In this document: in pieces, positions 1,370-60,459 of the stretch | How positions within the stretch are numbered: position 1 is the first letter of the stretch | Layout of the letters: each line of letters begins with the position of its first letter | Source: a virus | Strand: one strand, 5' to 3' | DNA length: 64,000 nucleotides | IMG/VR virus record: IMGVR_UViG_3300044632_000653 | Made by a program: the position numbers and the translations under genes | The notes under the pieces: model-generated | Told to the model about the DNA's origin: nothing | Databases searched by the model: none | The model's input: only the letters and a program-made list of their open reading frames with translations

Positions 1370-1854
1370 CGGGAGAAGGCGTGAACGACATCGACATGAA
1401 CATAGCGAAGACACTCGGCATAGATCCCCCCCATGCGCCCGTGCGCACGGACACGCCCGAGCCCGCACCCGAGCAGGAGATACTCCCCGCAAGGCAGGGC
1501 GGATACACCTCGCAGGATGCCGACAAGGACTATGCGGAGGTTCGCCGCAACCTCAAGGTGGTGATTGAGAAGTCCCAAGAAGCCATCGAAGGGATCATCG
1601 AACTCGCACAGGACAGCCAACAGCCCCGAGCCTACGAGGTGGTGGCGCAACTCATACAGTCGAACCTTGAGGCGAACACACGGCTCATGGACCTGCACCG
1701 CCGCATGAAGGACATCAAGCGGCAGGATGTGGTCAACAAGACCACGAATGTGACCAACAACTCGATCTATGTGGGCAGCACCGCAGACCTACAGAAGATG
1801 ATCCGTGACCAAAGGAAGGCTATGGATTCGGGGGAGGAGCCTTCCCATGAGTAG
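1366..1854 (+). CDS. gp16: Terminase small subunit gp16
   Basis: DY..VR.NL, PRAYEV, NNSIYVGSTADLQK motifs; ATG at 1366 overlaps the gp15 stop. Confidence 0.9.
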   Translation: MTGEGVNDIDMNIAKTLGIDPPHAPVRTDTPEPAPEQEILPARQGGYTSQDADKDYAEVRRNLKVVIEKSQEAIEGIIELAQDSQQPRAYEVVAQLIQSNLEANTRLMDLHRRMKDIKRQDVVNKTTNVTNNSIYVGSTADLQKMIRDQRKAMDSGEEPSHE

Positions 1855-3582: not shown

Positions 3583-5469
3583 ATGGCATTCCAACTCAGC
3601 CCAGGCGTGAATGTGACCGAGCGGGACCTCACGACGATTGTCCCTGCGGTCGCTACTACCAATGCGGGTATCGTGGGTCTTTTCAACTGGGGTCCCTGCA
3701 ACAAGAGGATCCTCGTTGACAGCGAGAACAACCTCGTTCAACTTTTCAGCACCCCCGATGACAATGTCGCCGAGTGGTGGTTCTCTGCCGCCAACTTCCT
3801 CGGATACGGCAACAACCTCCAAGTGGTCCGTGCCAAGATCGACGGCATGGTGAACGCCAACGCAAGGGGCTTCACGGGCGGCACCGCCGCCGACTCCGAC
3901 GATGCCATGATTGAGAACGATGACAAGGTCGGCTTCGTCACCGTGGACAACATGGGCTCGTTCGTTGCCCGTTACCCTGGTGCCATCGGCAACAGCCTTG
4001 AGGTTCAGATCTGCGGATCGCTTTCAGTCACCGCCGTGTCCAACATCACGGGGGGTGGAACTACTGCCTACGGTGCGGACTTTGAGGATTGGACCTACGC
4101 CACTCAGTTCGACTCCCGTCCGACCACGACCTCGTACATCGAAAGTCTGGGCGGTTCGGCTGACGAATTCCACGCCGTTGTCATCGACCGCAAGGGTCTC
4201 TTCTCGGGAACCCGTGGTGAGATCCTTGAGAAGTTCCAAGGCATGTCGTTCCTTCCGAATGTCACCGATTCGATTGGCAACAGCCTCTACTATGTGGACA
4301 AGATCAACCGTGAGTCGAAGTACATCTTCGCCGTGGAGAGGTCGGGGGCGAACGACTACGACGATCTGTTCATCGGAGGCACGGGTGCATGGGGCAACTC
4401 TGCCGTCAAGACTTGGTACTTGGCGGGTTCTCTCAGCACCACCTCGGGTATCACCGCTAGCAATGTGTCCTTCGGCGTGGGCGTGTGGCAACTCGGTGCG
4501 GGTAGCGACGGTCTCACCGCAGACCAAACCAACTACATGAAGATCGCCTTCGGTCAGGATTCGGACTCGGATCCCGAAGGCTATCGCCTGTTTGAGGATT
4601 CGGAGACGGTCGATGTCAACCTCCTGATCGGCGGTCCCGACAAGACCTTCACCCCGAACTCCAACGACCTCGCCGCAAGCGTCACGGGCTTCGTCGCACA
4701 GTCCATCAAGGACATCGTTGATGCCCGTAAGGACTGCGTGGCGTTCTTCAGCGTCCCGAACAAGGACCCGAACGAGACGGATCAGACCAAGCAGGACCGT
4801 GCCGTTCAGTATCGCAACAACATCGGCTCGTCCTCGTACTGCGTGATCGACAGCGGTTACAAGTACATGTACGACATCTACAACGACAAGTACCGTTGGG
4901 TCCCGCTGAACGCCGACATCGCAGGTCTCTGCGCCCGTTCCGATGTCAACTTCGACCCGTGGTACAGCCCCGCAGGTTTCAACCGTGGTCAGATCCGTGG
5001 CGTGGTCAAGTTGTCGTTCCAACCCCGTCAGGCGGCTAGGGATGTCCTCTACAAGAACGGCATCAATCCCGTCGCCACCTTCAGCGGCGAGGGAACCGTC
5101 CTCTACGGCGATAAGACCGCCCTCGCCAAGCCCTCGGCTTTCGACCGCATCAATGTGCGCCGTCTGTTCATCGTGCTTGAGAAGGCGATCTCGACCGCAT
5201 CGAAGTACAGCCTGTTTGAGTTCAACGATGCCTTCACCCGTGCGCAGTTCCGCTCGCTTGTCGAGCCATTCCTCCGTGATGTTCAGGCTCGCCGTGGCAT
5301 CTTCGATTTCAAGGTCGTGTGCGACGAGAAGAACAACACCCCCGAGGTCATCGACAGCAACAGGTTCGTCGCAGACATCTACATCAAGCCGAACCGAAGC
5401 ATCAACTTCATCCAGTTGAACTTCATCGCCACCAAGACGGGCGTGAACTTCAACGAGGTCGGTGCCTGA
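3583..5469 (+). CDS. gp18: Tail sheath protein gp18
   Basis: MAFQLSPGV.V.E.DLT, PWYSPAGFNRG, SAFDRINVRRLF, IKP.RSINFIQLNF. Confidence 0.97.
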   Translation: MAFQLSPGVNVTERDLTTIVPAVATTNAGIVGLFNWGPCNKRILVDSENNLVQLFSTPDDNVAEWWFSAANFLGYGNNLQVVRAKIDGMVNANARGFTGGTAADSDDAMIENDDKVGFVTVDNMGSFVARYPGAIGNSLEVQICGSLSVTAVSNITGGGTTAYGADFEDWTYATQFDSRPTTTSYIESLGGSADEFHAVVIDRKGLFSGTRGEILEKFQGMSFLPNVTDSIGNSLYYVDKINRESKYIFAVERSGANDYDDLFIGGTGAWGNSAVKTWYLAGSLSTTSGITASNVSFGVGVWQLGAGSDGLTADQTNYMKIAFGQDSDSDPEGYRLFEDSETVDVNLLIGGPDKTFTPNSNDLAASVTGFVAQSIKDIVDARKDCVAFFSVPNKDPNETDQTKQDRAVQYRNNIGSSSYCVIDSGYKYMYDIYNDKYRWVPLNADIAGLCARSDVNFDPWYSPAGFNRGQIRGVVKLSFQPRQAARDVLYKNGINPVATFSGEGTVLYGDKTALAKPSAFDRINVRRLFIVLEKAISTASKYSLFEFNDAFTRAQFRSLVEPFLRDVQARRGIFDFKVVCDEKNNTPEVIDSNRFVADIYIKPNRSINFIQLNFIATKTGVNFNEVGA

Positions 5470-6168: not shown

Positions 6169-7671
6169 ATGGCACTCTTTGGCTTTGACTTAGGCCGCAG
6201 CAAGAAACAGAAGAAGCAGGACAAGGCTCTGAAGTCGTTTGTCGTTCCGACATTCGATGACGGAGCCATTCCTGTTGAAGCGGGTGGCTTCTACGGTCAG
6301 TATGTCGATCTCGACGGCACCGTCCGCAACGACTTTGAACTCACGATGAAGTACCGTGAGATGGCGCAGGACCCGATTGTCGAGGTCGCAATCGATGACA
6401 TCGTCAACGAGTCCATCATCATGGGCGAGAAGAAGTCTCCCGTGAAGATCCTCCTCGACAAACTTGACGAAAGCGACGGCATCAAGCAGAAGATCCACGA
6501 CGAGTTCAGGAACCTCATCAGGGTCATGCAGTTTGAGACCAAGGGAGCCGAGATCTTCCGCCGATGGTATGTGGACGGGAAGATCTTCTTCCACATCATC
6601 ATCGATGAGGAGAACCCGCAGAAGGGCATCCTTGAACTCCGCTATGTCGATCCGATGAACATTCAGAAGATCCGTGAGTACACCAAGGAGACCCTCAAGA
6701 ACGGCACGAAGATCATCACGGGGTACAAGGACTTCTACCTGTACAACAAGGACAATCCCCGTGCAGGTGGCAACGCTGCGGGAATCAAGATCAGCGAGGA
6801 TGCCATCGCATTCTGCTCGTCGGGTCTCATGGACAGCCGCTACAAGCGCACCGTGGGCTTCCTCCACAAGTCGATCAAGCCGCTGAACCAACTGCGGATG
6901 CTTGAGGATGCCATCGTCATCTACCGTATCTCCCGTGCGCCCGAGAGGCGTATCTTCTACATCGATGTCGGCAACCTGCCCAAGACCAAGGCAGAGCAGT
7001 ATGTCAAGGACCTGATGAACCGATACCGCAATCGCCTCGTCTACGATGCGAACACGGGAGAGGTCAGGGATGACAAGAAGTTCATGTCCATGCTTGAGGA
7101 CTATTGGCTTCCCCGCCGTGAAGGTAGCCGTGGTACCGAGATCACCACCCTACAGGGAGGTCAGAACCTCGGCGAACTCACCGATGTCATTTATTTTCAG
7201 AAGAAGGTCTACAGGGCGTTGTCCGTCCCCGCTAGCCGCCTCGACCAAGACAAGCAGTTCATGCTCGGTCGCAGCACGGAGATCACCCGTGACGAGGTGA
7301 GGTTCACCAAGTTCGTCCACAGGCTCCGCACCAAGTTCAGCGAACTGTTTTTCGACATCCTTCGGAAGCAACTGATCCTCAAGAAGGTGATTACCGCCGA
7401 CGAATGGCCCGAGATGAAGGAGTCGATCTACTTCGACTTCCTCAAGGACAACCTGTTCACCGAACTCAAGAACGCCGAACTGCGGAAGCAGCAGGTCGAG
7501 GAGTTGGGAAACATCAAACCATACATAGGTAAGTACTACAGCCATGAGTGGGTCCGCAGGAATGTCCTCGGTTTCTCCGAGTCCGACATCAAGGAAATGG
7601 ACCGTGAGATTGAGAAGGAACGCAACGCAGGAAAGATCGAACCCGACAACTCGCAGTTCGGTCTCGCCTAA
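6169..7671 (+). CDS. gp20: Portal vertex protein gp20
   Basis: FRRWYVDG, NQLRMLEDA.VIYR.SRAPERRIFYIDVGNLPK.KAEQY, EDYWLPRREG. Confidence 0.97.
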   Translation: MALFGFDLGRSKKQKKQDKALKSFVVPTFDDGAIPVEAGGFYGQYVDLDGTVRNDFELTMKYREMAQDPIVEVAIDDIVNESIIMGEKKSPVKILLDKLDESDGIKQKIHDEFRNLIRVMQFETKGAEIFRRWYVDGKIFFHIIIDEENPQKGILELRYVDPMNIQKIREYTKETLKNGTKIITGYKDFYLYNKDNPRAGGNAAGIKISEDAIAFCSSGLMDSRYKRTVGFLHKSIKPLNQLRMLEDAIVIYRISRAPERRIFYIDVGNLPKTKAEQYVKDLMNRYRNRLVYDANTGEVRDDKKFMSMLEDYWLPRREGSRGTEITTLQGGQNLGELTDVIYFQKKVYRALSVPASRLDQDKQFMLGRSTEITRDEVRFTKFVHRLRTKFSELFFDILRKQLILKKVITADEWPEMKESIYFDFLKDNLFTELKNAELRKQQVEELGNIKPYIGKYYSHEWVRRNVLGFSESDIKEMDREIEKERNAGKIEPDNSQFGLA

Positions 7672-9865: not shown

Positions 9866-10297
9866 ATGCCCAAGGTCACCGTCAAGTTCAAGAAGGACAA
9901 GGCTGCGAGTGAGTTCGCAGCCAACTTCTCCATTCTTGACGATGGTGCGAAGGTGACGGTGAAGGGCAAGGAGGCTACGGTCGTTTCCTCCAACCCGAGG
10001 ACGGTGTCCGTCGTGAAGCAGTTGTCGAAGGATGTCGTTGAGGACATCCGATACGGCGAGATCGCCGATGCGATGCTCTCTGCGATACGAAAGTCCATCT
10101 CGGGCAGCAGGGTTTCGATCCGTCTCTTGGACGGGGAGACCCAACCCATGACCCCTGCACAGGGAGAGGCTCTCGCCCGTGCATACGACCGCCTGTCGGA
10201 GAGCAACCAATCAGCCTTCCTCATCCTCGCATCAGAGGGCAGGGAGGCATTCACCCATGCCATTGGGTTCGCAAGGAAGAACGAGGAGAACGAGTAA
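9866..10297 (+). CDS. Hypothetical prohead-region protein
   Basis: Tightly packed ORF; L..AYD.LSESNQ motif. Confidence 0.65.
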   Translation: MPKVTVKFKKDKAASEFAANFSILDDGAKVTVKGKEATVVSSNPRTVSVVKQLSKDVVEDIRYGEIADAMLSAIRKSISGSRVSIRLLDGETQPMTPAQGEALARAYDRLSESNQSAFLILASEGREAFTHAIGFARKNEENE

Positions 10298-10644
10298 TGC
10301 CACAGATCGTAAGGACCAACAAGCGTGTCGTGTACGCCACGGGAGCAACCGTGAGCGATATCGGCATCACCGCAAGCGCATTCTGCGACTACGGCACCAC
10401 GGACGGAAGGCAACTCGGCGAAGGCTCGGGCATCACGAATGGTACGGCGGCGATCTCCAAGATCGTCTCGGGATCACCTTCCTTCAGCGTCAGCATGTCG
10501 GGACAGACCGTGTTCACGGGTGGTGCGGCTGGCGAGTACAACTTTGAGCGGTACACGCTGAAGCCCATCGGGATCAACCCAACGGGCGTGTTCGGCGTGG
10601 TCGTCAGCACGGCGGGAACCGTGATAATCGAATTCGTCCTCTGA
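10297..10644 (+). CDS. Hypothetical small virion protein
   Basis: TAATG coupling; Gly/Thr-rich beta-strand character. Confidence 0.65.
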   Translation: MPQIVRTNKRVVYATGATVSDIGITASAFCDYGTTDGRQLGEGSGITNGTAAISKIVSGSPSFSVSMSGQTVFTGGAAGEYNFERYTLKPIGINPTGVFGVVVSTAGTVIIEFVL

Positions 10645-10678
10645 TCTAAAAGACTACATAAGGGAAAAGGAGACGGGG

Positions 10679-11323
10679 ATGAAACTCATCTGCGAGGTCA
10701 ACGAGGAGATCGAAGTCCTGACCGAGGAAAAGAACGGTCAGCGGCAGTACTTCATCGAAGGAACCTTCCTGCAAGGCGACATCAAGAACCGCAACGGTCG
10801 TGTCTACGAGTTCAAGATGCTCAAGGACAAGGTCGATCAGTACCGCAGGGAGTTCGTTGAGGCGAAGAGGGCGTTCGGTGAACTCGGTCACCCCGAGGGT
10901 CCGACGATCAACCTTGAGCGTGTCTCGCACATGATCATGGAACTCCATCCTGACGGCAAGAACTTCTACGGCAAGGCGAAGATCACCGACACCCCATACG
11001 GCAAGATCGTCAAGAACCTCATCGATGAGGGTGCGAAGTTGGGCGTGTCGAGCCGTGGTGTCGGCTCCCTTGAGGAGAAGAACGGTGCGTCCTATGTCAA
11101 GGATGACTTCCGCCTCTCGACCGCAGCAGACATCGTCGCCGACCCTTCCGCCCCCGAGGCTTTCGTGCGTGGCGTGATGGAAGGCAGGGAGTGGATCTAC
11201 GAGAACGGTCTCCTCGTCGCCAAGCAAGCCGAGGAGATCCGAAACAGCATCAAGAAGGCTTCTGCGAGAAAGTTGGAAGAGGCGAAGATCGCCGCTTTCA
11301 AGAGGTTCCTCGGAAGGCTTTGA
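10679..11323 (+). CDS. gp21: Prohead protease gp21
   Basis: FIEG.FLQ..IKNRNGRVY, GELGHP.GPTINL.RVSH, LGVSSRG.GSL, DIVADPSAP.AFV. Confidence 0.96.
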   Translation: MKLICEVNEEIEVLTEEKNGQRQYFIEGTFLQGDIKNRNGRVYEFKMLKDKVDQYRREFVEAKRAFGELGHPEGPTINLERVSHMIMELHPDGKNFYGKAKITDTPYGKIVKNLIDEGAKLGVSSRGVGSLEEKNGASYVKDDFRLSTAADIVADPSAPEAFVRGVMEGREWIYENGLLVAKQAEEIRNSIKKASARKLEEAKIAAFKRFLGRL

Positions 11324-12515: not shown

Positions 12516-13877
12516 ATGGAACTGACGATTTCCGAGGCCCTTCAGAAGAAGTGGCAACCCATCCTTGAACACGCTGACTTGCAGCCGATCAAGGACCCGT
12601 ACCGCAAGGCGGTTACGACCATGCTCCTTGAGAATCAGGAGCAGTACCTCCGTGAGGCTGCGCCCACCAACTTCAGCGGTGCTGCCACCATTGGTCAGGA
12701 AAGCGGCGGCAATGTGGCTCGTTGGGACCCGATCCTGATCAGCCTCGTTCGTCGTGCGATGCCGAACCTCATCGCCTACGACATCTGCGGCGTTCAGCCG
12801 ATGAGCGGTCCTACGGGACTTATCTTCGCCATGCGCAGCCGCTACATCAATCAGACGGGTCCTGAGGCTCTCTACCAAGAGGCTGACACCGCTTTCGGTG
12901 GCTCGGGCTCGACGGGTGCGACGGCTCAAGGCAACTACAACACCGATCCGTTTGAGATCAGCGGTGTGGATCCGTTCGGCTCGGGCACCCTCGCTCAGGC
13001 GACGGGCGTGAAGGGCACTAAGGGCTTCAGCACCTACGGCGGTGAAGCCCTCGGCGACTCGGCGAACAATCCGTTCCCGCAGATGGCATTCAGCATTGAG
13101 AAGACCACGGTCGAAGCGAAGACCCGTGCCCTCAAGGCTGAGTACACGATGGAACTCGCACAGGATCTCAAGGCGATCCACGGTCTCGACGCTGAGACGG
13201 AACTCGCCAACATCCTGTCGAGCGAAATCCTCGCCGAGATCAACCGTGAGGTCGTTCGTGTCATCTACGCCAACGCCAAGTTGGGTGCGAAGAGCGGCAC
13301 GACCCAAACCACGGGTGTCTTCGACCTCAATGTCGATTCCAACGGTCGTTGGAGCGTTGAGAAGTTCAAGGGTCTCCTCTTCCAGATTGAGCGTGAGTGC
13401 AATCAGATCGCCAAGGAAACCCGCCGTGGCAAGGGCAACTTCATCGTCTGCTCGTCGGATGTCGCCTCGGCTCTGTCGATGGCGGGTGTCCTCGACTACG
13501 CCCCTGCCCTCAGCACGAACCTCAATGTGGATGACACGGGCAACACCTTCGCAGGTGTCCTCAACGGCAAGTTGCGTGTGTACATCGATCCGTACTCGTC
13601 CATGACCACCTCGCATGACTTCTTCATGGCGGGTTACAAGGGCTCGTCGGCTTACGATGCGGGTATGTTCTACTGCCCGTATGTGCCGCTGCAAATGGTC
13701 CGTGCGGTCGGTGAGCAGTCCTTCCAGCCGAAGATCGGCTTCAAGACTCGCTACGGCTTGGTCAACAATCCGTTTGCGACGATCAACAACGGTTTGTCGG
13801 TGGCTGACCCCTACGACACCAATGCGACCCGCAAGAACATCTACTACCGCATCGTCAAGGTCACGAACCTCTTCTGA
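12516..13877 (+). CDS. gp23: Major capsid protein gp23
   Basis: DPILISLVRRAMPNLIAYD.CGVQPM.GPTGLIFAMRSRY, KAEYTMELAQDLKAIHGLDAE, FQPKIGFKTRYG. Confidence 0.98.
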   Translation: MELTISEALQKKWQPILEHADLQPIKDPYRKAVTTMLLENQEQYLREAAPTNFSGAATIGQESGGNVARWDPILISLVRRAMPNLIAYDICGVQPMSGPTGLIFAMRSRYINQTGPEALYQEADTAFGGSGSTGATAQGNYNTDPFEISGVDPFGSGTLAQATGVKGTKGFSTYGGEALGDSANNPFPQMAFSIEKTTVEAKTRALKAEYTMELAQDLKAIHGLDAETELANILSSEILAEINREVVRVIYANAKLGAKSGTTQTTGVFDLNVDSNGRWSVEKFKGLLFQIERECNQIAKETRRGKGNFIVCSSDVASALSMAGVLDYAPALSTNLNVDDTGNTFAGVLNGKLRVYIDPYSSMTTSHDFFMAGYKGSSAYDAGMFYCPYVPLQMVRAVGEQSFQPKIGFKTRYGLVNNPFATINNGLSVADPYDTNATRKNIYYRIVKVTNLF

Positions 13878-17939: not shown

Positions 17940-18986
17940 TCAGTAGATGATGCCGCCTGTACTGACCATGCAATTATCGGACACAAACATCGCCTGTGCA
18001 AGAGTCTTCATGTTGTACGAAGGTTGCCATCCGAGGATGAGACGGGCTCGGGTCGAGTCGCCGAGGAGATATGGCACCTCGTTCGGACGGAACAGCCTCG
18101 GGTCGATGATGACATACTTTTCCCATGAGCCGAGATCCGCAGCGGAGAACACCTCGTCAAGGAACTCACGGACGGTGTATGTCTCTCCCGTAGCGATCAC
18201 ATAGTCGCTCGGAATGTCCTGTTGGAGCATGAGCCACATGGCATGCACATAGTCCGCTGCATGTCCCCAATCACGCTTTGCGTCGAGGTTGCCAAGACGG
18301 AGGTTCCTCTGAAGCCCGTGCTTGATCCTCGCAGCCGCCATCGTGATCTTGCGGGTGACGAAGGTCTCCCCACGGCGTGGACTCTCATGGTTGAACAGGA
18401 TGCCGCATGAGGCATGGATTCCATAAGCCTTGCGGTATGTCTGCACCATCTGATGGGCATACACCTTGGCGACGGCATACGGCGAGACGGGTTGCAGCGG
18501 GGACTGTTCGTTGAATCCCATCGGGCTCGTCGGGACCGAGTCGCCGAACATCTCCGAGGATGACGCTTGATACAGCCTCGTCTGCGGGGAGATCGTCCTG
18601 ATGGCGTTGAGGATGTTCAGGGTGCCGTTGCAGATGCCGTCCGAGGTGTACTCGGGGAGTTCAAACGAGACTGCGACATGGCTCTGTGCGGCGAGGTTGT
18701 AGACCTCGTCAACCTCGTACTCCATGAGGATGTTGGAGATGCAGGATCCGTCGTGCAGGTCGTAGTACTTGAGGATGAACCTCGGATCGTTCGTGAGGTG
18801 ATCGATCCTTCCCGTCGAGATGGTGGATGTCCTCCGCTTCAAGCCGATGACGGTGTAGCCCTTGCGGAGGAGGAGTTCGCTGAGGTACGAGCCGTCCTGA
18901 CCGTTCACGCCCGTGATGACGGCGGTCTTTCCGTTCGGGACGGGATCGGCGTTACTTGCGGATGGAGTCGTAGTTGCTTCTGACAT
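17940..18986 (-). CDS. gmd: GDP-mannose 4,6-dehydratase
   Basis: ITGVNGQDGSYL, YNLAAQSHV.VSF, YQASSSEMFG, SPYAVAK, GILFNHESPRRGETFVTRKI, LGNLDAKRDWGHA.DYV. Confidence 0.96.
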   Translation of the reverse strand: MSEATTTPSASNADPVPNGKTAVITGVNGQDGSYLSELLLRKGYTVIGLKRRTSTISTGRIDHLTNDPRFILKYYDLHDGSCISNILMEYEVDEVYNLAAQSHVAVSFELPEYTSDGICNGTLNILNAIRTISPQTRLYQASSSEMFGDSVPTSPMGFNEQSPLQPVSPYAVAKVYAHQMVQTYRKAYGIHASCGILFNHESPRRGETFVTRKITMAAARIKHGLQRNLRLGNLDAKRDWGHAADYVHAMWLMLQQDIPSDYVIATGETYTVREFLDEVFSAADLGSWEKYVIIDPRLFRPNEVPYLLGDSTRARLILGWQPSYNMKTLAQAMFVSDNCMVSTGGIIY

Positions 18987-19872
18987 GGTCGCAGGTTTCC
19001 TTGATGGCTGTCTTGATGTCGGTGAAATTGAAGTCGGGGTACGCCGCTCGGAACCTTGAGTTGTCCGTGGGCTTTCGGTATATGCCTTCGGGCATGTCCG
19101 TTTGGAAGACGATCTCGCCGTCGAATTCCATGGCTTCGGCGATCATCCAAACGATGTCCTTGATCCTGTACTCCTGAGACGGAGATACGATCATCTCTGT
19201 CGGCACGGACTCACGGTTGTCGGAGTGGATCGTGGTCAGGGCTCTTGCGATGTCGGGTGCGTACACGAATTCACGCAACGCATCTCCCGAACCCCACACG
19301 GCAAAGGGCGTTCTTTCCCTCTTGGCGAGGTAGCACTTGTGGATGAGGCTCGGGATGACATGCCCGTGCATGCAGTTGTAGTTGTCGTTCTTGCCGAAGA
19401 CATTGCAGGGGATCACGCATCGGACCTGCATGCTGCGGTCCTTGCGGAGGCATCGGGCACCGACCTCAAGCATCCTCTTGGCATAGGCATAGCCGAAGTT
19501 GGTGTGGTGCGGTTCGCCGAGGTGGAGGCTGTCCTCCGTGAGCGGATACTGAACCTGCGTGGGGAAGACGCAGGTCGAGAGTACGAATGTTGCGGAGTTC
19601 AGCAAAAACTCCCCGCAGACACGCATCACATTGGCGTTGATGGAGAGGTTGTTGCTGAAGAACTCAAAGGAGTGGCGGTCGTTCGCACGGACACCTCCGA
19701 CCGTGGCGGCAAGGTGGATGACCTCGCTGATCTCGTTGTCGGCGACGAACTCACGCAGTTGCCTGTAGTCGAGGAGATTGAGTTCCCTTGATGTGGGGGC
19801 GAGTGCGTATCCCGAAGGAATCTCGCTGCCGATCAGCCCGTGACCTCCCGTGATGAGGACATGCCTGTTCAT
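18952..19872 (-). CDS. fcl: GDP-L-fucose synthase
   Basis: ITGG.GLIG, HLAA.VGG..AN, STC.FP, N.GYAYAKR, HVIPSLIHK, VWGSG..LREF; adjacent to gmd. Confidence 0.93.
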   Translation of the reverse strand: MNRHVLITGGHGLIGSEIPSGYALAPTSRELNLLDYRQLREFVADNEISEVIHLAATVGGVRANDRHSFEFFSNNLSINANVMRVCGEFLLNSATFVLSTCVFPTQVQYPLTEDSLHLGEPHHTNFGYAYAKRMLEVGARCLRKDRSMQVRCVIPCNVFGKNDNYNCMHGHVIPSLIHKCYLAKRERTPFAVWGSGDALREFVYAPDIARALTTIHSDNRESVPTEMIVSPSQEYRIKDIVWMIAEAMEFDGEIVFQTDMPEGIYRKPTDNSRFRAAYPDFNFTDIKTAIKETCDHVRSNYDSIRK

Positions 19873-20444
19873 GGGTTCTCCTCTTCCTTACGGGCATCCA
19901 TGATCCTCCGCTTGAGGTCGGAGATGCGGACATGCACCGAGTTCACGGCGATACCCGCAACCTTGGAGATCTCCTCGGTGGACTTTCCCTCGCACTTCAT
20001 CTTGAGCATGGTGATGTCAACGGGGCGCAGGTTGTGCTTCTGACGGAGCGACTCCCAATCCTCATGGGACACGACAAGGGGTTCCTCATGGGTGTCAACG
20101 AAGATGACATCCTCCATCTTCTGAGACTTGTGGGCGTTGTCGGCAGAGTCGAGGCAGGAGATGGGAAGCATGCGGTCCTGCTTGTAGTACTTCTTGGCGT
20201 AGAAGGTCTTCTGCTGCAAGATCGCCTTGCGCCGCATGAACTTGGGGTCCGAGCGGTTGCGCCAAATGACAAGAGCCGCTTCCTGTAGGAAGTCATCGAA
20301 TCCCATCATGCCAAGGATCCTGTCTCCGTAACGCTTGCGGAGCCAATGCTTGGTCAACTGAAGGTTCTTGAGGAACTCCCTCAAGTATCCCTCTTCAGAG
20401 AGATTTTCCTTGTCGCCGTCCTTGCCGTTGTCGCCACCATCCAT
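19869..20444 (-). CDS. ECF/sigma70-like factor or HTH regulator
   Basis: Region-2-like DDFLQEAALVIWR and region-4-like EGKSTEEISKVAGIAVNSVHVRIS. Confidence 0.6.
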   Translation of the reverse strand: MDGGDNGKDGDKENLSEEGYLREFLKNLQLTKHWLRKRYGDRILGMMGFDDFLQEAALVIWRNRSDPKFMRRKAILQQKTFYAKKYYKQDRMLPISCLDSADNAHKSQKMEDVIFVDTHEEPLVVSHEDWESLRQKHNLRPVDITMLKMKCEGKSTEEISKVAGIAVNSVHVRISDLKRRIMDARKEEENP

Positions 20445-20456
20445 GGAACCCCCTTT

Positions 20457-20936
20457 TCACTCCGATTTTGCCTTGCCGATCAACACCCTTTGCCTGTCCA
20501 ACTTGTTGAGGAAGATGCGCCGAAGTTCAGCGTTCACCTTGACCGTGTTCGGATCCCCGAGCGACACCGTGCCCTTCAAGAGGCACTCCTCTGCTGCGGA
20601 GAGCGTCTCCTGCATGATGTCGATCCTCGTCCTGAGTTCCAACACTTTCTCCTGCAACTCAGCCACGCCCTGTGGGAGATACACCTTCTCCAAGGAAACC
20701 GTGTCGGGTTGCCTGATAGGCATGTTCCTGCTCTCTGCGAACTTGACGAGATCGGAGACAAGAACTCTGCGGTCCTTGTTGATGAGCCATGACGGAATAC
20801 ATCCCTTGTCAATCCACTTTGTGACGGTTCTCGGAGATACCCCGAGCATGGAAGCCGCCTGTCCCGTTGTGGCTTGATGATTTCCACCGTTTGCGCCGAT
20901 AGACCTTGTCTTGCGATTACGACTCATTCTGCTCAC
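20457..20936 (-). CDS. MerR/excisionase-family HTH protein with coiled coil
   Basis: TTGQAASMLGVSPRTVTKWIDKG.IP...DRRV..SDL..F. Confidence 0.75.
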   Translation of the reverse strand: MSRMSRNRKTRSIGANGGNHQATTGQAASMLGVSPRTVTKWIDKGCIPSWLINKDRRVLVSDLVKFAESRNMPIRQPDTVSLEKVYLPQGVAELQEKVLELRTRIDIMQETLSAAEECLLKGTVSLGDPNTVKVNAELRRIFLNKLDRQRVLIGKAKSE

Positions 20937-21129
20937 TCCCTCCCTGTTCGTTGTCGCTTTGCTTCATCTTGAGAAAGGTTCGGCTTCCGATGTACACGAT
21001 GGAAAGTGCGGTGCCGCACACGATCAGCCACTTGGCGATCTCCTTGTCTCCCTTCATGCCTTCGATCAGACCGATCAGAACGGGTGCGATTGACACCCAA
21101 AACTCTGTGGTCTTCGTTCCCGACTTCAT
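20917..21129 (-). CDS. Small membrane protein (holin-like)
   Basis: MKSG.KTTEFW start, two hydrophobic segments ending YI.SR. Confidence 0.55.
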   Translation of the reverse strand: MKSGTKTTEFWVSIAPVLIGLIEGMKGDKEIAKWLIVCGTALSIVYIGSRTFLKMKQSDNEQGGSEQNES

Positions 21130-21857
21130 CGGCTTTCTCCCGAAGATTCGTTCACCGATGGCACCGATGGGGTGGTGTATGCCCCGAGGACGAGTGATTG
21201 GTCTTTTGCGTCCGTGGTCCCGTCTCCGTTCACATCTCCCTTGCCGCTTCCCCAACCACCAAGAACGAGAGCAAGGTCTGCGGCATCCACCTTGTTGTCG
21301 AGGTTGAGGTCCTCGGCACGGAACAGGTCCATCTCAAAGACCATGCTCTCGCCGCAAGGCACGGACACCACGATGCTGTGCTTGAGGAATGGCGTGGAGA
21401 GGCTGCGCTCATCCTTCACCCAAAGGTGCAGGGACTCCTGCGTGGTTTCCTTGAGCATGATCGGAGGCAGCGTGTCGAAGGCGAGTCGATTGCAGGGGGT
21501 CACGCTGTTCCATGCGATGGACGATTCGTGATCCTTGATTTGGATGTACGACTGCTGCGGGTAGCGGAGACGAATCCGCCAAGACTTGTTCATGTCAACC
21601 TGCTGCGTGTTCATGTCAACGAAGAAGCCCTCGGAGACATCGGAGTCGTTTCGGAGTTCGATCTTCCATCCGAGGGATCCGATGTCCCTCTTCGACACAT
21701 TGATGGAGAGTTTGTCGTTGGCGACGATCATCTGCGGGGTCTCCGAGATGACGGTCGTGTAGTCCCTGATCGTGTTGTCAGGATTCCCAAGAGTCGCAGG
21801 ATCCAACGGATTGAGTCGGAATGCTGCCATCAAGACATAGGTTGCGGTTGCTGACAT
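21126..21857 (-). CDS. Protein with C-terminal dockerin-type duplicated Ca-binding motif
   Basis: EDLNLDNKVDAADLALVLGGWG and GDVNGDGTTDAKDQSLVLGAY. Confidence 0.75.
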   Translation of the reverse strand: MSATATYVLMAAFRLNPLDPATLGNPDNTIRDYTTVISETPQMIVANDKLSINVSKRDIGSLGWKIELRNDSDVSEGFFVDMNTQQVDMNKSWRIRLRYPQQSYIQIKDHESSIAWNSVTPCNRLAFDTLPPIMLKETTQESLHLWVKDERSLSTPFLKHSIVVSVPCGESMVFEMDLFRAEDLNLDNKVDAADLALVLGGWGSGKGDVNGDGTTDAKDQSLVLGAYTTPSVPSVNESSGESR

Positions 21858-24092: not shown

Positions 24093-24106
24093 GCAGGTAT
24101 GTATCG

Positions 24107-45513: not shown

Positions 45514-45939
45514 ATGATCGGCAACGGGATCGACGAAGACATGACCGAGGGACTTCGGACGGTAGCGAAGTTCTACACCATGCCACTCGGTTTGCAGGTC
45601 GAGTTCAGGTTCGACCCGTCCAAGCCCAAGGAGGTGATATCGGTATCGGGTGGAACGAGCCGCAAGGTGCCGACCGAGTTGGTATTGGGATGGATTGCCT
45701 CCTACAAGCACATCGATGACATGACGAGGACTGAACTCAACGGGGACAAGAGCCACTACGCTGTTCCCGACATGGACCACGGTCACTCGCCCGAGTTCGT
45801 CATCGGTCCTTACTGGAGCAAGTTGTTCCTCAACAGACAGGGAAAGACTTCGATAAAGCACACCTTCCCCGATGTGTATGTCTATCCCCATTGGCTGAAG
45901 CGGATCAGGGAACTGCTGACGGTCAAAAGACTTCCATGA
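45454..45939 (+). CDS. Putative internal head protein
   Basis: Shared leader; second linker IDEDMTEG. Confidence 0.65.
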   Translation: MTNENQITTATMRNLVEAANMIGNGIDEDMTEGLRTVAKFYTMPLGLQVEFRFDPSKPKEVISVSGGTSRKVPTELVLGWIASYKHIDDMTRTELNGDKSHYAVPDMDHGHSPEFVIGPYWSKLFLNRQGKTSIKHTFPDVYVYPHWLKRIRELLTVKRLP

Positions 45940-46376: not shown

Positions 46377-46756
46377 AGACCTTCGTCTCCTACATCTCCG
46401 AGGCTGCGAAGCCTAGTCGTACCGTGCCCTACCGTTGGAGTGCGACGGATACGCAGCATGCCATGAACTACACTCGGACGATGCCGTCATCCGTTCCGAA
46501 CGCCAAGTGGTATGTGGTCGATGGATCATACGACAAGGAGAAGAAGGACTACCGCCTCCTCCGTGACGGGGTGGTAATCGCTCATATCAGGTATCACCCG
46601 AGCGAAGGCGTGTGGCGATGGGAAACCATCCACAGCGCACCTAGAGGTGGATTGGGGATGGGTAGGCACGACAAGGGGAAGTATGTGTCTAGTAAGCCCC
46701 TCGCCCTTTCATTAGCGGAGAAGCAGATCATCGAAAGGGAGAGGACCGCAGGATGA
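46373..46756 (+). CDS. Putative internal head protein, paralog of 45936
   Basis: Identical 31-bp leader (MKTFVSYISE); YTR...VPNA.WY shared. Confidence 0.65.
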   Translation: MKTFVSYISEAAKPSRTVPYRWSATDTQHAMNYTRTMPSSVPNAKWYVVDGSYDKEKKDYRLLRDGVVIAHIRYHPSEGVWRWETIHSAPRGGLGMGRHDKGKYVSSKPLALSLAEKQIIERERTAG

Positions 46757-47145
46757 AGGACTTCCACGGATTCATCTCCGAGGCTCCCGTCTCGTACACC
46801 GCAGTCATGCTCGACCAACGGAGCCATGACCTTCTCATGTCGAGGATGCGTCCTCACATGCCCGAGGGATGGAAGGTGTACGCCCACCACATGACGATGC
46901 ACATGGGAGCGGCGAAGCCCGAGGACAGGGTCGGGCAGTCCGTGACCATCGTCGCAGACGCATGGGCGGCTGACGAGCGCACGGTCGCCGTGAGGGTCAC
47001 GGGTCACCCGAGCAGGAACAGGACCCCGCATGTGACCGTGGCTGTCAATGCCGCTGCGGGTGCGAAGCCCAAGGACAGCAACCTCCACACGGAATGGAAG
47101 CCGATGCCTCCGCTGAGGCTGACGGGCACCGTGGGAGAGGCTTGA
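46753..47145 (+). CDS. 2H phosphoesterase with capsid-targeting-like leader
   Basis: Two HxT motifs (HHMTM, PHVTV); leader MKDFHGFISE. Confidence 0.8.
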   Translation: MKDFHGFISEAPVSYTAVMLDQRSHDLLMSRMRPHMPEGWKVYAHHMTMHMGAAKPEDRVGQSVTIVADAWAADERTVAVRVTGHPSRNRTPHVTVAVNAAAGAKPKDSNLHTEWKPMPPLRLTGTVGEA

Positions 47146-47216
47146 AGCGCAAACCCCACAGGCTCCTCCTCTTATGTGCCTTCCTCTAAGTAGGGCAAAG
47201 CACCTTTGGAGGAAGC

Positions 47217-48548
47217 ATGCACAGGATCATCTCGTCCTTCTGCGCCATGGCTCTCGTAGCCTTCGCAGCCGTCACGACCGCCGCAGCGCAGGTGGTCGTG
47301 CCCCCGAGCATCGTCACGCAGCCCGATGGAACCCTGCGGTTGGTCCCCGTGCCACCCGCAACGGTGTACACCCCGTATGTGATCGACCCGAGCATCAAGT
47401 ACAGGCTCGTCATGGAGTCGGGTTGGTCGAACGCCGATTGGCAGGGCAAGACCCGCAACGGTCAGGTCGCCTTGAAGGACCGTGAGATCACGGTTGACCT
47501 GATGGCGATGCCGCTGACGAGGACCGCCGTGATCGACGGCAAGACCGTGACCCTCTTCAGCGTCTTCCGCTCGGCGGATGTCTGCATCGGTTGGGACAAC
47601 ACGAAGTTGGAACTCCTCCCGCTCGGTCCCCAAGGGACGGCGTTCGACGCATCCGTCTTCAACGGGTCGAAGTCGAGGTTGGACCGCATCTCCCCCGCAG
47701 AGGGCGAGGGCTCCGCTCAGGGTGTCGCAGTCCTCCATGCCGAGGTCCTGCCCCCGCCGCAGGAGAGGACCCCCGCACTCCGACCCGACTACTACAGGTG
47801 GAACATGGGAGGATTCCTGTGGCAGGGCGGCTACCGACTCGTAGCCAAGTTGCGGTTCCGAGTGCGGGATGACTTCTACTACCCTGTGCAGTCGAGGACC
47901 GACATACGGATCCTCCCCACCGTCTCCCATGGCGGTGTCGAGTACGCCACCAAGATCGACGGGAGCCCGACCAAGGGGACGAATGTCCTCGGCGAGACGA
48001 GGAGCAGCGTGAACGGCATCCTCTTCGGTGTCGGTCCCGAGTACAAGGTCACCCACTCGCTCGTCGCTCCCGCCGTCAAGGCGAAGGTCGGCGACATCGT
48101 TCCCGTGAAGGTACTCGTATCCTCCGAGACCAAGCCGCAGCGGCTGCACTCGGTCGCCACCAACTTCGCATGGGATCCGTCCAAGTTGGAGTTCATGGGC
48201 ATCTCCACCACGGGATCGCTCTCGTTCCAACAGAACAACCTTCCCTTCGTGGGGGCGGGGAACATCAACGAGGCGACCGTGCCCAAGGACGGGACGGCTG
48301 CGCACAATTGGCTGTGCCGCCTCGGGACGAGGACCGTGGTCACGGGCGGCGGTCTCGTCGCCACGCTGAACTTCAAGGTCGTGTCGGAGTTCGACACGGC
48401 GGCGGTCGAGATCCTCGGCAAGGACGATCCCCGACTCGTCGGCGTGTTCGTGTTGGACGAGTCGGGCATCCTCGGCAGCGACATCCCAGGCGTCTTCGTC
48501 ACGGGAACGAAGGTCAATGCCGTCGTGAAGGGTCCTCTCTCGCCGTGA
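47217..48548 (+). CDS. Secreted protein with two cohesin-like domains
   Basis: Signal peptide; ITVDL..ADVCIGWDNTKLEL..LVAKLRFRV and VGDIVPVKV..VATNFAWDPSKLEF..LVATLNFKV. Confidence 0.7.
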   Translation: MHRIISSFCAMALVAFAAVTTAAAQVVVPPSIVTQPDGTLRLVPVPPATVYTPYVIDPSIKYRLVMESGWSNADWQGKTRNGQVALKDREITVDLMAMPLTRTAVIDGKTVTLFSVFRSADVCIGWDNTKLELLPLGPQGTAFDASVFNGSKSRLDRISPAEGEGSAQGVAVLHAEVLPPPQERTPALRPDYYRWNMGGFLWQGGYRLVAKLRFRVRDDFYYPVQSRTDIRILPTVSHGGVEYATKIDGSPTKGTNVLGETRSSVNGILFGVGPEYKVTHSLVAPAVKAKVGDIVPVKVLVSSETKPQRLHSVATNFAWDPSKLEFMGISTTGSLSFQQNNLPFVGAGNINEATVPKDGTAAHNWLCRLGTRTVVTGGGLVATLNFKVVSEFDTAAVEILGKDDPRLVGVFVLDESGILGSDIPGVFVTGTKVNAVVKGPLSP

Positions 48549-48589
48549 TCCATGGGTGATCGATGGTTTCACGGGGATACATACTTCCC

Positions 48590-50202: not shown

Positions 50203-50278
50203 GATCACCGCATAAACGCAGAAACTGAAGACGAACCCCCTTGATGGTTATCGGTAATGAGTGGTAACCTCACAGACC

Positions 50279-50959
50279 ATGAACAAGACTTTCATGCGTA
50301 ACCTTGCCGAGAACATCGCCCTCAACTCTCTTCGCCACGGCGGTCTCCTGCCGAAGCATCAGGTCATCGTGGACCGTCAGGACTCGGACCCATCCACGGT
50401 CCTCGGCAAATGGGACGGGAAGATTCCGTTCGGTCCACCTGCACCAAACGCAAGTGTGGAGACCGTCATGGAACTCAACCACATCGTTGAAGGTCAGACA
50501 CTCGCATCGAAGGAAGAGATCGAATTCAGTCTCTCTATCGACAAGCCGAGGAACCACTACGAATGGTGGAGCAGGGAGGTCGAGTCCCTCACGGGCAGGA
50601 GGCACTCACCCGACAGGCTCTACATGATCGCCGACATGGCTGAGGGATTCCTCCTGCGGCTGAAGGCGCACTTCGACCGACCGAGACCGTATCAACTCGG
50701 TCCCCACCTCGGGAAGCGCATCCACATGTTCCTGCCCGACCCGAGGACACCTTCGTATCCATCGGGTCACTCGTTCGACGCATACCTGATCGCACTCACA
50801 CTCAGCGACGAGCATCCCGAGCATCACGAACGCCTCTTTGAACTCGCCGACACAGTCGGGGTTACGAGGATCATCGGGGGAGTCCACTACTCCTCCGACA
50901 TCACGGCGGGTCGCAACGCCGCCATCATCGCACACCGCATCATCAAGGGAATGAAATGA
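50279..50959 (+). CDS. PAP2-family phosphatase
   Basis: K.HFDRPRP, SYPSGH, R..GGVHY.SD motifs. Confidence 0.85.
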   Translation: MNKTFMRNLAENIALNSLRHGGLLPKHQVIVDRQDSDPSTVLGKWDGKIPFGPPAPNASVETVMELNHIVEGQTLASKEEIEFSLSIDKPRNHYEWWSREVESLTGRRHSPDRLYMIADMAEGFLLRLKAHFDRPRPYQLGPHLGKRIHMFLPDPRTPSYPSGHSFDAYLIALTLSDEHPEHHERLFELADTVGVTRIIGGVHYSSDITAGRNAAIIAHRIIKGMK

Positions 50960-51267: not shown

Positions 51268-51491
51268 AATAAGAAGACCCCCCGTGCGCAACGAGGGGTC
51301 TTCCGATTATAGCCCCGCTAGTTCGGGGACTTTATGGCGAGTTTTACTTCGCCTCACGATGCCTTCTAGTTGGCACGGTGCGGTCGCCTGTCCGTGGGTA
51401 CCCGTGGACGGGCTCTTTTCCCTTGCATGTATGTATGGAGGTCGAGAGGTGGGGATGCTCTAAATACTCCACACATACGAAAGGGAAATCC

Positions 51492-52091: not shown

Positions 52092-53162
52092 ATGGCAGTA
52101 CTCAAGCACTACAACCCGATCACGCACGACATCTACCACTACCCGTTCCCTGCGAATCAGACGAGCGGAGGGGTCACGCCTGATGGCTACAGCAGCGAGT
52201 CTCAGACCTACGGCATCGTGGATTGGTCGGGCACCCGTTGCCTCGACCGCTACCTCTGTAGGGCGATTGGTAACAGCCCCTTCCTCACGATTCCCTACGA
52301 CATCACAAGCGTGAACTTTTGGAACCAATGCACCTATGCAGCGGTGCTGATCAGTCCACGCCATGCCCTCGTCTGTCAGCACTTCCGTGGAGCGCACAGC
52401 GACCCGAACATCAACACGGGAGGAATCAGGTTCTTTGGCAAGGGGGGCAGCATGTACGAGAACAGGGTGACCCGTGTGTACCTTGATGTCGGACCCGACC
52501 TGACGCTGCTTGAGTTCCTTCAGCCGTTCCCCGATGCGGATCTCAAGATCTACAACAGGATCGCAGACCCGCTCTACATCCCCTCAGGGACTCCCCTGTG
52601 GACCAAGGACAGCAACGGCAAGGTATACAAGACGGTGTTCGACAAGGCGAACTACAACCCCAACACAGATGACACCTACGGCTACTCGTTCCGTCCGTCC
52701 CTCGACGGTGTGAACGACGGCGCATATCAGAACGGTACCCTCGCCATCTTCGTCGGCGACTCTGGTTCGCCCGTGATGGTCCGTGACTCATACGGCGAAA
52801 CCGTATTCGTAGGACTTCAGTACGGCGGTCAGTCGATCAACCGTGCCACCTTCAGCCGCTTGGTGTCGATCCTTGCTCCCTTCAACTACTCCTTGGAGCA
52901 TGTGAAACTCTCCGCTAAGAAGGAAGACATCAATCAGGATGGCAAGGTTGATGCGGAGGACCTTGCCCGTGTCCTCGCTAGTTGGGGTCAGACGAAGGAT
53001 CCGTTCTCGGACATGGACGGAGACGGCAAGGTCGATGGCATCGACATCAGTCTCCTGATGAATGCGTGGGGCTCGTACACGATTCCTACTAGCGCACAGT
53101 CCACGATTCAGCCGCCGATCATCCCTCCTCCCACGGAAACGAACACGAAGCCTCGCTCCTGA
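52092..53162 (+). CDS. Trypsin-like serine protease with C-terminal dockerin
   Basis: AVLISPRHALVCQH (His), DLTLL (Asp), GDSGSP (Ser); DINQDGKVDAEDLARVLASWG..DMDGDGKVDGIDISLLMNAWG. Confidence 0.85.
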   Translation: MAVLKHYNPITHDIYHYPFPANQTSGGVTPDGYSSESQTYGIVDWSGTRCLDRYLCRAIGNSPFLTIPYDITSVNFWNQCTYAAVLISPRHALVCQHFRGAHSDPNINTGGIRFFGKGGSMYENRVTRVYLDVGPDLTLLEFLQPFPDADLKIYNRIADPLYIPSGTPLWTKDSNGKVYKTVFDKANYNPNTDDTYGYSFRPSLDGVNDGAYQNGTLAIFVGDSGSPVMVRDSYGETVFVGLQYGGQSINRATFSRLVSILAPFNYSLEHVKLSAKKEDINQDGKVDAEDLARVLASWGQTKDPFSDMDGDGKVDGIDISLLMNAWGSYTIPTSAQSTIQPPIIPPPTETNTKPRS

Positions 53163-59691: not shown

Positions 59692-60459
59692 ATGATCAAG
59701 CAGAGCATCTTGGGGGTTGGCATCGCCGCCACCCTCACGACCGCCGCCCTCGCACAGGGCAGCAGCACTCAGGACGAGCCGTCGATCAAGGCGGCAGTCT
59801 CGGACATCAAGTGGTCGATCAACGAGAACTTCGGCTACTACACCTTCGACGGTGGAGAGGATCTCCTCGCATTCGACACGACCTTCGCACTCTCGTTGAA
59901 CGAGGACACCGAGGTGTTCGTTTCGATCCCCGTGTACAATCAGGGAGATGAGACCAGCATCGCAAACCTCGCTGTCGGTGGTGAGTTCGTCGCCGCAAAG
60001 GGAACCGATGGTCTCCTCGGGGAGTGGGACCTCTCTCTTGGCGGCGGTGTGTATCTTCCTGTTGGCTCGGAGACTTTCGATTCGTCCAATGTGGACCCGT
60101 TCTTCACGGGCGAGTTCGGCTGCAAGGCTTGGGTGTTCGACTTCACCCAAACCGCAGAGTTCCGCTTCGTTGGGGGCGGTGCCTACATGCCGTGGCTCGG
60201 TGCGAAGACCGACTCGGATGTCCTCACCTTGGGTAGCAACCTCGGCTACAAGTGGGGCGAGTTCGACCTCGCCGCCGAACTGACGCAGATCTACTACATC
60301 GATGCGAACGAGGAGCAGATCTTCCTCGGTCCTGTCGTGTCGTGGAGCCCGAACAACACGGTGTCCATCGAAGCCAAGGTGGACTTCCCCATCACGCAGA
60401 ACACCTCGACCCCCGAGACCGACATGGTCGTTGGCGTTGGTCTCGGCATCAAGTTCTGA
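59692..60459 (+). CDS. Outer-membrane beta-barrel-like protein
   Basis: Signal peptide, alternating amphipathic strands, C-terminal beta-signal VGVGLGIKF. Confidence 0.7.
   Translation: MIKQSILGVGIAATLTTAALAQGSSTQDEPSIKAAVSDIKWSINENFGYYTFDGGEDLLAFDTTFALSLNEDTEVFVSIPVYNQGDETSIANLAVGGEFVAAKGTDGLLGEWDLSLGGGVYLPVGSETFDSSNVDPFFTGEFGCKAWVFDFTQTAEFRFVGGGAYMPWLGAKTDSDVLTLGSNLGYKWGEFDLAAELTQIYYIDANEEQIFLGPVVSWSPNNTVSIEAKVDFPITQNTSTPETDMVVGVGLGIKF

Follow-up and report, generated by a model that had tools for sequence, protein, structure and literature searches.

Does a bacteriophage carry both halves of a cohesin–dockerin pair, and if so, what would it dock, and where? In bacterial enzyme complexes, cohesin–dockerin pairs are the classic example of a high-affinity connection, and protein engineers make wide use of them. 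The question is raised by a gene at positions 47217–48548 (+ strand) in a 64,000-nucleotide stretch of viral DNA (IMG/VR record IMGVR_UViG_3300044632_000653; hereafter, the window), for which an earlier note, made from the sequence alone, had proposed a phage-encoded assembly system consisting of a secreted protein with two cohesin repeats and two dockerin-ended cargo proteins. The analysis presented here suggests that the phage probably carries its own version of this bacterial plug-and-socket enzyme-complex system. The preferred reading, an envelope docking system in which leaderless cargo would meet the exported cohesin protein at lysis, is given a probability of about 0.5.

The phage origin of the DNA assumed in the earlier note is well supported. 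Strong PHROG matches reveal a set of T4-like myophage genes, namely the large terminase (1805–3529), tail sheath (3583–5469), portal (6169–7671), scaffold, and T4-type major capsid protein (12516–13877), the last being about 63% identical to its counterparts in Methylophilales phage Melnitz and Pelagibacter phage HTVC008M. Judged by these genes, the window, whose G+C content is 57%, is part of an uncultured T4-like myophage. The host is probably a bacterium of the Gram-negative type. A near-identical IMG/VR contig (L002, 99%) is also available.

An Exported Protein with Two Cohesin-Type Modules

The cohesin gene encodes 443 amino acids, with a GGAGGA ribosome-binding site 5 bases before the ATG. 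The product is laid out as follows:

47217–47288 (+): signal peptide, residues 1–24, recognized by a basic n-region, a hydrophobic core, and a small-x-small motif followed by Q (cleavage between AAA and Q)
47289–47390 (+): proline-rich N-terminal segment of the mature protein, residues 25–58, delimited by conservation in the family alignment (A1)
47391–48032 (+): cohesin-fold module 1, residues 59–272, with insertions and without a Pfam match, from model m22470bdf6b97
48039–48539 (+): cohesin module 2, residues 275–441, from Pfam Cohesin and a fold match to solved cohesins

There are 56 homologues of similar length and 38–55% identity, all of them metagenomic. The signal-peptide layout is a family trait: of 40 members, 31 satisfy a strict rule and 36 possess the hydrophobic core, so that the secretion claimed in the earlier note is sustained by a predicted Sec signal peptide conserved throughout the family. 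The proline-rich segment that follows is among the best-conserved stretches of the family (consensus QTPPTKVPQPDGTIQLVPVPP) and forms short strands in the model.

Module 2 is recognizable by sequence. Pfam Cohesin (PF00963) matches residues 283–392 with 26.2 bits against a cut-off of 24.1, and the precomputed annotation of 17 of the 56 homologues includes the same family. An AlphaFold2 model of the whole protein, built on a 40-homologue alignment, reached a pLDDT of 90.8 and a pTM of 0.80; in a fold comparison, module 2 (residues 275–441) best matched 6kgc_A (Z 14.3, rmsd 2.5 Å over 137 residues), and its list contains dozens of cohesins of types I, II, and III as well as noncellulosomal ones. 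Since one domain dominated the long model, residues 26–272 were modelled separately (pLDDT 91.1), and module 1 was compared with 48,161 representative PDB chains, no Foldseek prefilter being applied. Cohesins take all of the first 17 places (2vo8_A: Z 11.6, rmsd 2.6 Å, 135 of 135 residues), with pilin and adhesin β-sandwiches starting only below Z 8.4; in Foldseek, the top 12 matches of module 1 are cohesins too.

In the models, both modules match the nine-stranded β-sandwich fold of solved cohesins. They share hardly any sequence similarity (BLASTP E 0.04 over 16 residues), and module 1 is a cohesin by its predicted fold only. The earlier claim of two cohesin repeats therefore stands for both modules at the level of fold, and for the second but not the first at the level of the Pfam hidden Markov model (HMM). 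No further domain or anchor was found in the protein: Pfam is blank elsewhere, and the model consists of the short N-terminal segment and the two modules. An open reading frame (ORF) of 466 codons on the opposite strand (47172–48572, −) fully overlaps the cohesin gene and was rejected, as homology backs the plus-strand frame only. This antisense ORF is a by-product of the high G+C content and is preferred by a simple longest-ORF gene caller.

Two Leaderless Proteins with Dockerins

The putative plugs are encoded by two other genes:

52092–52895 (+): leaderless trypsin-type serine protease domain, residues 1–268, recognized by its catalytic triad
52923–53072 (+): dockerin of the protease, residues 278–327, from Dockerin_1, with calcium loops at 52926–52961 and 53010–53045
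21126–21857 (−): 243-residue protein with a C-terminal dockerin, from an HMM of phage dockerins, with loops at 21276–21311 and 21201–21236

The earlier note had described these genes as ending in duplicated dockerin-type motifs, and profile searches confirmed this for both. In the protease (ORF 52092–53162, 356 residues), Dockerin_1 (PF00404) scores 37.1 bits against a cut-off of 22.9. Among 49 homologues the whole architecture is kept, and the dockerin was found in all 37 aligned members. The two loops, DINQDGKVDAED and DMDGDGKVDGID, carry D or N at positions 1, 3, 5, 9, and 12 in both repeats; D279, N281, D283, D290, D307, and D318 are invariant, and each loop is followed by a helix ending in a conserved W-G. 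The best PDB sequence matches of the protease-dockerin profile are themselves dockerins (2jnk_A and 2y3n_B), the first being the dockerin of Clostridium perfringens NagH.

The N-terminal domain of the same protein is a putative trypsin-type serine protease, as called from the catalytic triad: H97, D136, and S224 (the latter in GDSGSP) are invariant in the 37 homologues, with GDSGSP or GDSGTP kept. The domain has an ESM feature score of 0.98 to serine-protease clusters. Profile matches are all marginal, including those to the Trypsin HMM (only 6 of 37 members, best E 0.054), to PDB trypsin and Hbp (E 0.04–0.2), and to the Peptidase_S6 HMM.

The loops of the 243-residue protein read DLNLDNKVDAAD and DVNGDGTTDAKD. 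Its score with Dockerin_1, 19.6 bits, lies below the Pfam cut-off of 22.9, and it reaches 44 bits with the HMM made from the phage protease dockerins; precomputed PF00404 matches exist for 7 of its 11 homologues. By its sequence, this dockerin is a weaker one of the same type as that of the protease. No usable ESM Atlas match was obtained for the N-terminal domain. A regular-expression scan of all six frames of the window found duplicated dockerin loops in 52092–53162 and 21126–21857 only.

No signal peptide was found in either dockerin protein, in accordance with the caveat of the earlier note, nor in the 690–817-residue dockerin proteins adjoining the protease in relatives. The split is consistent: the cohesin protein and a β-barrel-like protein described below have signal peptides, and all dockerin cargo proteins seen lack one. 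Nor did a glycoside hydrolase domain turn up in the dockerin cargo proteins.

Linkage of Cohesin and Dockerin Genes in Related Phages

The genes for the cohesin protein and the protease are close or adjacent in three lineages. They lie 3.5 kb apart in the window and in the near-identical contig; in L026–L028, the protease-dockerin gene, a gene for a 65-residue protein with two transmembrane (TM) segments, and the cohesin gene follow one another within 2.7 kb; and in L024, the order is cohesin, ThyX, protease. Only two near-complete relatives are available (174.6 kb, 100%; 168.4 kb, 93%), and each has a cohesin gene and one Dockerin_1 gene. Conversely, a protease homologue in G009 has no dockerin, and its record also has no cohesin.

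The most telling evidence comes from comparing DNA and gene order in relatives of low G+C content, where the genes occupy an island between a conserved block (helicase, primase, ThyX, and ribonucleotide reductase (RNR)) and a RuvC-like gene. One version of the island encodes a β-barrel protein, a GT-like protein, the cohesin protein, SNase, and a tubulin/FtsZ-family protein; the other, in a sister set, encodes the protease-dockerin with or without a 690–817-residue leaderless dockerin protein and with or without a β-barrel protein. Thus, depending on the phage, the post-RNR island holds sockets, plugs, both, or a fused form. In L003–L025 and L042–L048, the island is hypervariable, and its flanks share 72–76% DNA identity.

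The genomic linkage of cohesin and dockerin is real but partial. As for the co-occurrence check suggested in the earlier note, it holds in both near-complete relatives and is not seen in many fragments with one partner or in the either/or island of the low-GC relatives. A side observation concerns a 62-kb relative with a protease-dockerin gene (L037:526–816; G010:C1:61641–61748), where a 97-residue frame matches the last 36 positions of the cohesin profile. This frame lies about 5 kb upstream of the protease-dockerin gene, near the contig end, and may be a decayed or frameshifted cohesin gene.

Fusions and Bacterial Counterparts

When the profile of the cohesin family was run against 1.84 billion representatives, the two-module build was found in only about 6 clusters, and about 190 further proteins matched module 2 alone, most of them being 200–260-residue proteins with signal peptides. 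Among the matches listed, 50 of 149 distant relatives of the cohesin subfamily have at their C-terminus a dockerin recognized by the phage-dockerin HMM; of 10 fused dockerins tested, 7 pass the Pfam cut-off. The frequent occurrence of this cohesin subfamily and this dockerin type on one polypeptide is a classic sign of a functional link. The fused relatives export the dockerin along with the cohesin. One of them belongs to another T4-like lineage (L074, a 108-kb ENA contig with gp32 and an intein-split RNR): a 247-residue protein composed of a signal peptide, a cohesin, and a dockerin (10001–10744; cluster of 115 members) is encoded directly after the RNR gene. Being socket and plug at once, it could form chains.

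The nearest non-phage relatives of the cohesin module are found in metagenome-assembled genomes (MAGs) of Planctomycetota; the named hits also include one MAG labelled Limnohabitans, and at one bacterial locus a cohesin relative is located next to HYR+dockerin and cohesin+dockerin proteins. Such relatives are sparse: among 185,579 species genomes, the cohesin alignment picked up one weak match, in Phycisphaeraceae, and the phage cohesin profile gave weak matches in only 3 of 301 sampled Planctomycetota genomes. A Phycisphaeraceae MAG of 6.1 Mb (G020; L073, L076, L079) bears 94 Dockerin_1 matches, about 70 of them above the cut-off; from these counts it is a very large noncellulosomal dockerin repertoire. 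The phage cohesin module also has two weak relatives in the same MAG, one of which neighbours an 886-residue HYR-repeat protein.

Among known phages, tblastn against 50,697 GenBank phage records found nothing for the cohesin protein, both dockerin proteins, or the two-TM protein; PHROGs have no match for the cohesin or either dockerin protein, and the BFVD viral structures gave only generic β-sandwich matches of low TM-score. In the literature outside subscription-only sources, no paper on a natural phage-encoded cohesin–dockerin pair was found, only engineering work or passing mentions, which agrees with the earlier note in that no complete phage system of this kind is known.

Envelope-Type Neighbours

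Two further genes of the window belong to families that accompany the cohesin and dockerin genes:

20917–21129 (−): 70-residue two-TM protein with a charged C-terminal tail, from hydropathy; its ATG overlaps the stop of the dockerin gene
59692–60459 (+): signal-peptide protein ending in ...GLGIKF, outer-membrane β-barrel-like, with its own ATAAGTA element

The 70-residue protein consists of two hydrophobic segments and an acidic/basic tail. Its homologues lie between the protease-dockerin and cohesin genes in L026–L028; in L013 the homologue immediately precedes the cohesin gene, and in L001 it is found in the vicinity of that gene. A class II (two-TM) holin would be expected to be small, to have two TM segments and a charged C-terminal tail, and to be encoded next to lysis genes. 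In L024, a dockerin seemed to be fused to the two-TM protein; this was dropped as an artefact of an over-long ORF call. The barrel-like family, to which the member in the window was linked by tblastn, has signal peptides and ends in ...G.G.KF or ...INF; at about 12 loci it is encoded one or two genes upstream of the cohesin gene, and in L056 and L060 it comes straight after the dockerin genes. In addition, a Destabilase-type lysozyme with a signal peptide is found a few genes from the set in L001, L024, and L026–L028. Taken together, the barrel, two-TM, and lysozyme neighbours and the exported fusions, as read from their sequences, point to the cell envelope of a diderm host.

Probable Late Expression

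The exact T4 late promoter TATAAATA is absent from the window, and no sigma-70-like promoters were found in the 44.5–54.5-kb region. A degenerate element, MTAMRTA, occurs in 25 copies in the window against 6.5 ± 2.7 in shuffles, a four-fold enrichment which is partly circular since the pattern was defined post hoc from these upstream regions. Despite this, its positional bias is still striking: nearly all copies lie 12–50 nt upstream of substantial ORFs on the coding strand, including those of the sheath, scaffold, capsid, and tube. Three copies concern the proposed system:

47186–47192 (+): late-promoter-like CTAAGTA, 31 nt before the start of the cohesin gene
51460–51466 (+): late-promoter-like CTAAATA heading the unit of genes 51492, 51771, and the protease gene
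24098–24104 (−): late-promoter-like element heading the minus-strand run that includes 21126–21857

Just upstream of the second one, a strong terminator-like hairpin is found at 51386–51413, and the protease gene starts 3 nt past the stop of the preceding gene. It is therefore probable, as far as such motifs can tell, that the cohesin gene and both dockerin genes are late genes. The element comes in variants (CTAAATA, CTACATA, ATACATA, and ATAAGTA; sites at, e.g., 3543, 12476, 11342, 47186, 51460, and 57211), precedes all recognizable structural genes, and is a candidate late promoter in place of TATAAATA.

A Putative Docking System and Its Rivals

According to the preferred reading, a soluble, Sec-exported two-cohesin protein would be made late in infection and would wait as a receptor in a periplasm of the Gram-negative type. 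Concurrently, at least two leaderless proteins with calcium-loop dockerins would be synthesized, namely the serine protease and the protein with the unmatched domain. For clostridial dockerins, it is established that folding depends on calcium, and the cytoplasm contains little of it. Because the cargo has no export signal and dockerins need calcium to fold, contact between receptor and cargo is expected no earlier than the breaching of the inner membrane at lysis, or after release. At that point, the dockerin-tagged enzymes would be caught by the cohesin protein, and the protease would build up on envelope material. The domain identities, the export signal and its absence from the cargo, the late-type elements, the gene linkage, and the fusions in relatives are observed in the sequences; we infer the partner binding, its timing, and the target of the protease, and the outcome might be the finishing of lysis, the clearing of receptors, or something else.

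A more specific form of the same idea, rather unlikely as a whole, is a lysis-gated device. Here, the periplasm would be pre-loaded with the two-cohesin receptor, which the phage barrel might tether to the outer membrane, and the dockerin enzymes (the serine protease and, in relatives, leaderless enzymes of 700–800 residues) would be kept in the calcium-poor cytoplasm; upon breach of the inner membrane, the dockerins would fold and dock, and the enzymes would cut envelope proteins. This would provide a protease-based finish to lysis, or clear receptors from debris, in a phage group without recognized spanins. In that case, the post-RNR island would be a swappable socket/plug toolkit shared across T4-like phages.

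A number of observations weigh against a phage-encoded docking system. By sequence, only module 2 qualifies as a cohesin, as module 1 has no Pfam Cohesin match, and in the complete relative G003, two cohesin modules face a single dockerin. No dockerin was found within 10 kb in 24 of 30 cohesin-bearing viral contigs, all of which are fragments, nor in seven cohesin records searched whole (17–49% complete); ten protease-bearing records have no cohesin, including protease-dockerin records of 129 kb (73% complete) and 147 kb and five others, and in one further record only a weak trace of it is seen at the contig end. The two-TM protein has no PHROG, Pfam, or GenBank-phage match and no homology to known holins, and the circularity in the count of late-type elements adds to these points. 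Linkage and fusions tie this cohesin subfamily to this dockerin type; for the putative binding of the phage cohesins to the phage dockerins, a complex prediction for the mature cohesin protein and the protease dockerin gave a score of 0.00, which, obtained without controls, counts neither way. Finally, the island of the low-GC relatives is filled by either the cohesin set or the dockerin set, in keeping with partners that come from elsewhere.

For this last reason, docking to host partners is a serious rival. The phage modules might plug into a cohesin–dockerin network of the host, with the dockerin enzymes settling on host cohesins and the exported cohesin protein capturing or blocking host dockerins; the earlier note, too, had raised interference with the host's dockerin network, and the partial co-occurrence keeps this idea alive. 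Besides the either/or island, such a view gains from the Planctomycetota MAGs, where the nearest non-phage cohesin relatives stand beside HYR+dockerin and cohesin+dockerin proteins and one genome has 94 Dockerin_1 matches, and from the peptidase-docking "planctosome" proposed for freshwater Planctomycetes (PMC6461901). It is weakened by the facts that both near-complete phage genomes have both partners, that leaderless phage cargo cannot reach host surface cohesins before lysis, and that the phage cohesin profile finds weak matches in just the 3 of 301 Planctomycetota genomes mentioned above; no tRNA genes were found in the window, and no link to a host was found. Such docking is possible, though doubtful.

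The remaining two explanations are less in keeping with the data. The dockerin proteins might be virion-associated enzymes or adhesins (the protease and large β-helix-like proteins) that bind a surface cohesin at adsorption, the secreted cohesin protein being a decoy which keeps progeny or rival phages off the infected cell or its debris. The late-type elements shared with structural genes and the absence of leaders, as in virion proteins, would suit this idea, which is nevertheless improbable, as no PHROG structural family matches the three proteins, their genes are found among small accessory genes and not in the structural module, and a periplasmic protein would be badly placed to intercept extracellular particles. 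It is very improbable that the resemblance is structural only, i.e., that the cohesin protein is a generic two-domain β-sandwich envelope protein with another ligand and that the dockerin-like repeats are calcium stabilizers. The missing Cohesin HMM match of module 1, the excess of just 2 bits over the cut-off in module 2, and the integrin and pilin β-sandwiches lower in the fold lists would allow it, and many noncellulosomal dockerins are not known to have a partner (Peer et al., as cited in PMC6461901). Yet cohesins top two independent fold searches, well over other β-sandwiches, and the dockerin fusion in a third of the listed subfamily relatives, together with gene adjacency, is hard to obtain by chance.

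Comparison with Known Systems

Both phage modules share the cohesin β-sandwich with the clostridial type I pairs and the noncellulosomal pairs of C. perfringens (6KGC, 1OHZ, 2VN5; 2VO8, 2W1N, 2OZN/2JNK), and the phage dockerin is built like clostridial ones from a duplicated calcium loop of 12 residues plus a helix. The likeness to C. perfringens is the closest in two respects: among PDB sequences, the phage dockerin is matched best by the NagH dockerin, and in fold, module 1 comes nearest to a C. perfringens cohesin. In contrast to the clostridial pairs, the set belongs to a T4-like phage, its cohesin modules are only about 9–20% identical to solved cohesins, and it lacks a carbohydrate-binding module (CBM), SLH, sortase signal, or other anchor; its cargo is a protease and an unmatched protein, both leaderless, rather than glycoside hydrolases, and its dockerin helices end in W-G. 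The term mini-scaffoldin used in the earlier note can be kept only as an analogy, since no anchoring or substrate-binding module (CBM3, SLH, sortase signal, type II dockerin) was found. A cellulosomal scaffoldin is defined by several cohesins with an anchor or targeting module and by secreted polysaccharide-degrading cargo; the phage set has two cohesin-fold modules and neither of the other two features. By sequence and fold, the phage modules are better described as members of the cohesin and dockerin families, with "scaffoldin" and "cellulosome" serving as analogies.

The planctosome is a hypothesis for freshwater Planctomycetes, according to which noncellulosomal cohesin–dockerin modules dock peptidases; its proposed parts, all with signal peptides, include giant anchoring proteins and metallopeptidases (Andrei et al. 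2019, PMC6461901). As in the planctosome, docking modules are proposed here for an envelope of the Gram-negative type, and the nearest relatives of the phage cohesin are in Planctomycetota MAGs. Unlike the planctosome, the phage set is pared down to a single two-cohesin protein with one or two cargo proteins; it uses a serine protease, and its cargo is leaderless.

In holin–endolysin lysis, a leaderless enzyme reaches the periplasm only once the holin opens the inner membrane. The pairing of leaderless cargo with an exported receptor would mirror this logic: an exported component is combined with leaderless late enzymes, and a two-TM protein and a secreted lysozyme are encoded beside the set in relatives. 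In contrast, the cohesin protein, the protease, and the two-TM protein have no homology to any known holin, endolysin, or spanin. A role of the set in lysis is putative.

A virus with both halves would extend the cohesin–dockerin principle to a new setting, with an exported socket, leaderless cargo, and a protease in place of glycoside hydrolases. It would offer a small, testable pair from an uncharted cohesin subfamily, and the "W-G" dockerins are abundant in Planctomycetes-type bacteria, where they are without known partners. The pair could also reveal what T4-like phages of environmental bacteria do with the outer envelope at lysis. The socket-only, plug-only, and fused swaps at one island suggest an exchangeable module system among related phages.

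Other Features of the Flanking Genes

The minus-strand run that contains the 243-residue dockerin gene also encodes a GDP-mannose 4,6-dehydratase and a GDP-fucose-synthase-like epimerase (17940–19872 and 19869–20936), as well as a sigma-70 region-4-like protein and an HTH_17/MerR-like protein.

Around the cohesin and protease genes, the products of seven genes start with near-identical leaders of 10 residues (gene starts at 45936, 46373, 46753, 48587, 48898, 50279, and 51771), which read MKTFVSYISE (twice), MKDFHGFISE,.RSFKSYISE, MKSYHELVMFLE, MNKTFMRNLAE, and MKNYREFITE. The common pattern, MK.F...I.E, resembles the capsid-targeting sequence of T4 internal proteins, in which the prohead protease cuts after I/L-x-E. 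The cohesin protein and the protease are without it; a T4-type capsid-targeting leader on the protease was considered and rejected, as its conserved N-terminus, MAVLK.Y...HDIY, is unlike that of the neighbours. The leader-bearing neighbours include a PAP2 phosphatase (50261–50959) and a 2H-phosphoesterase-like protein (46753–47145).

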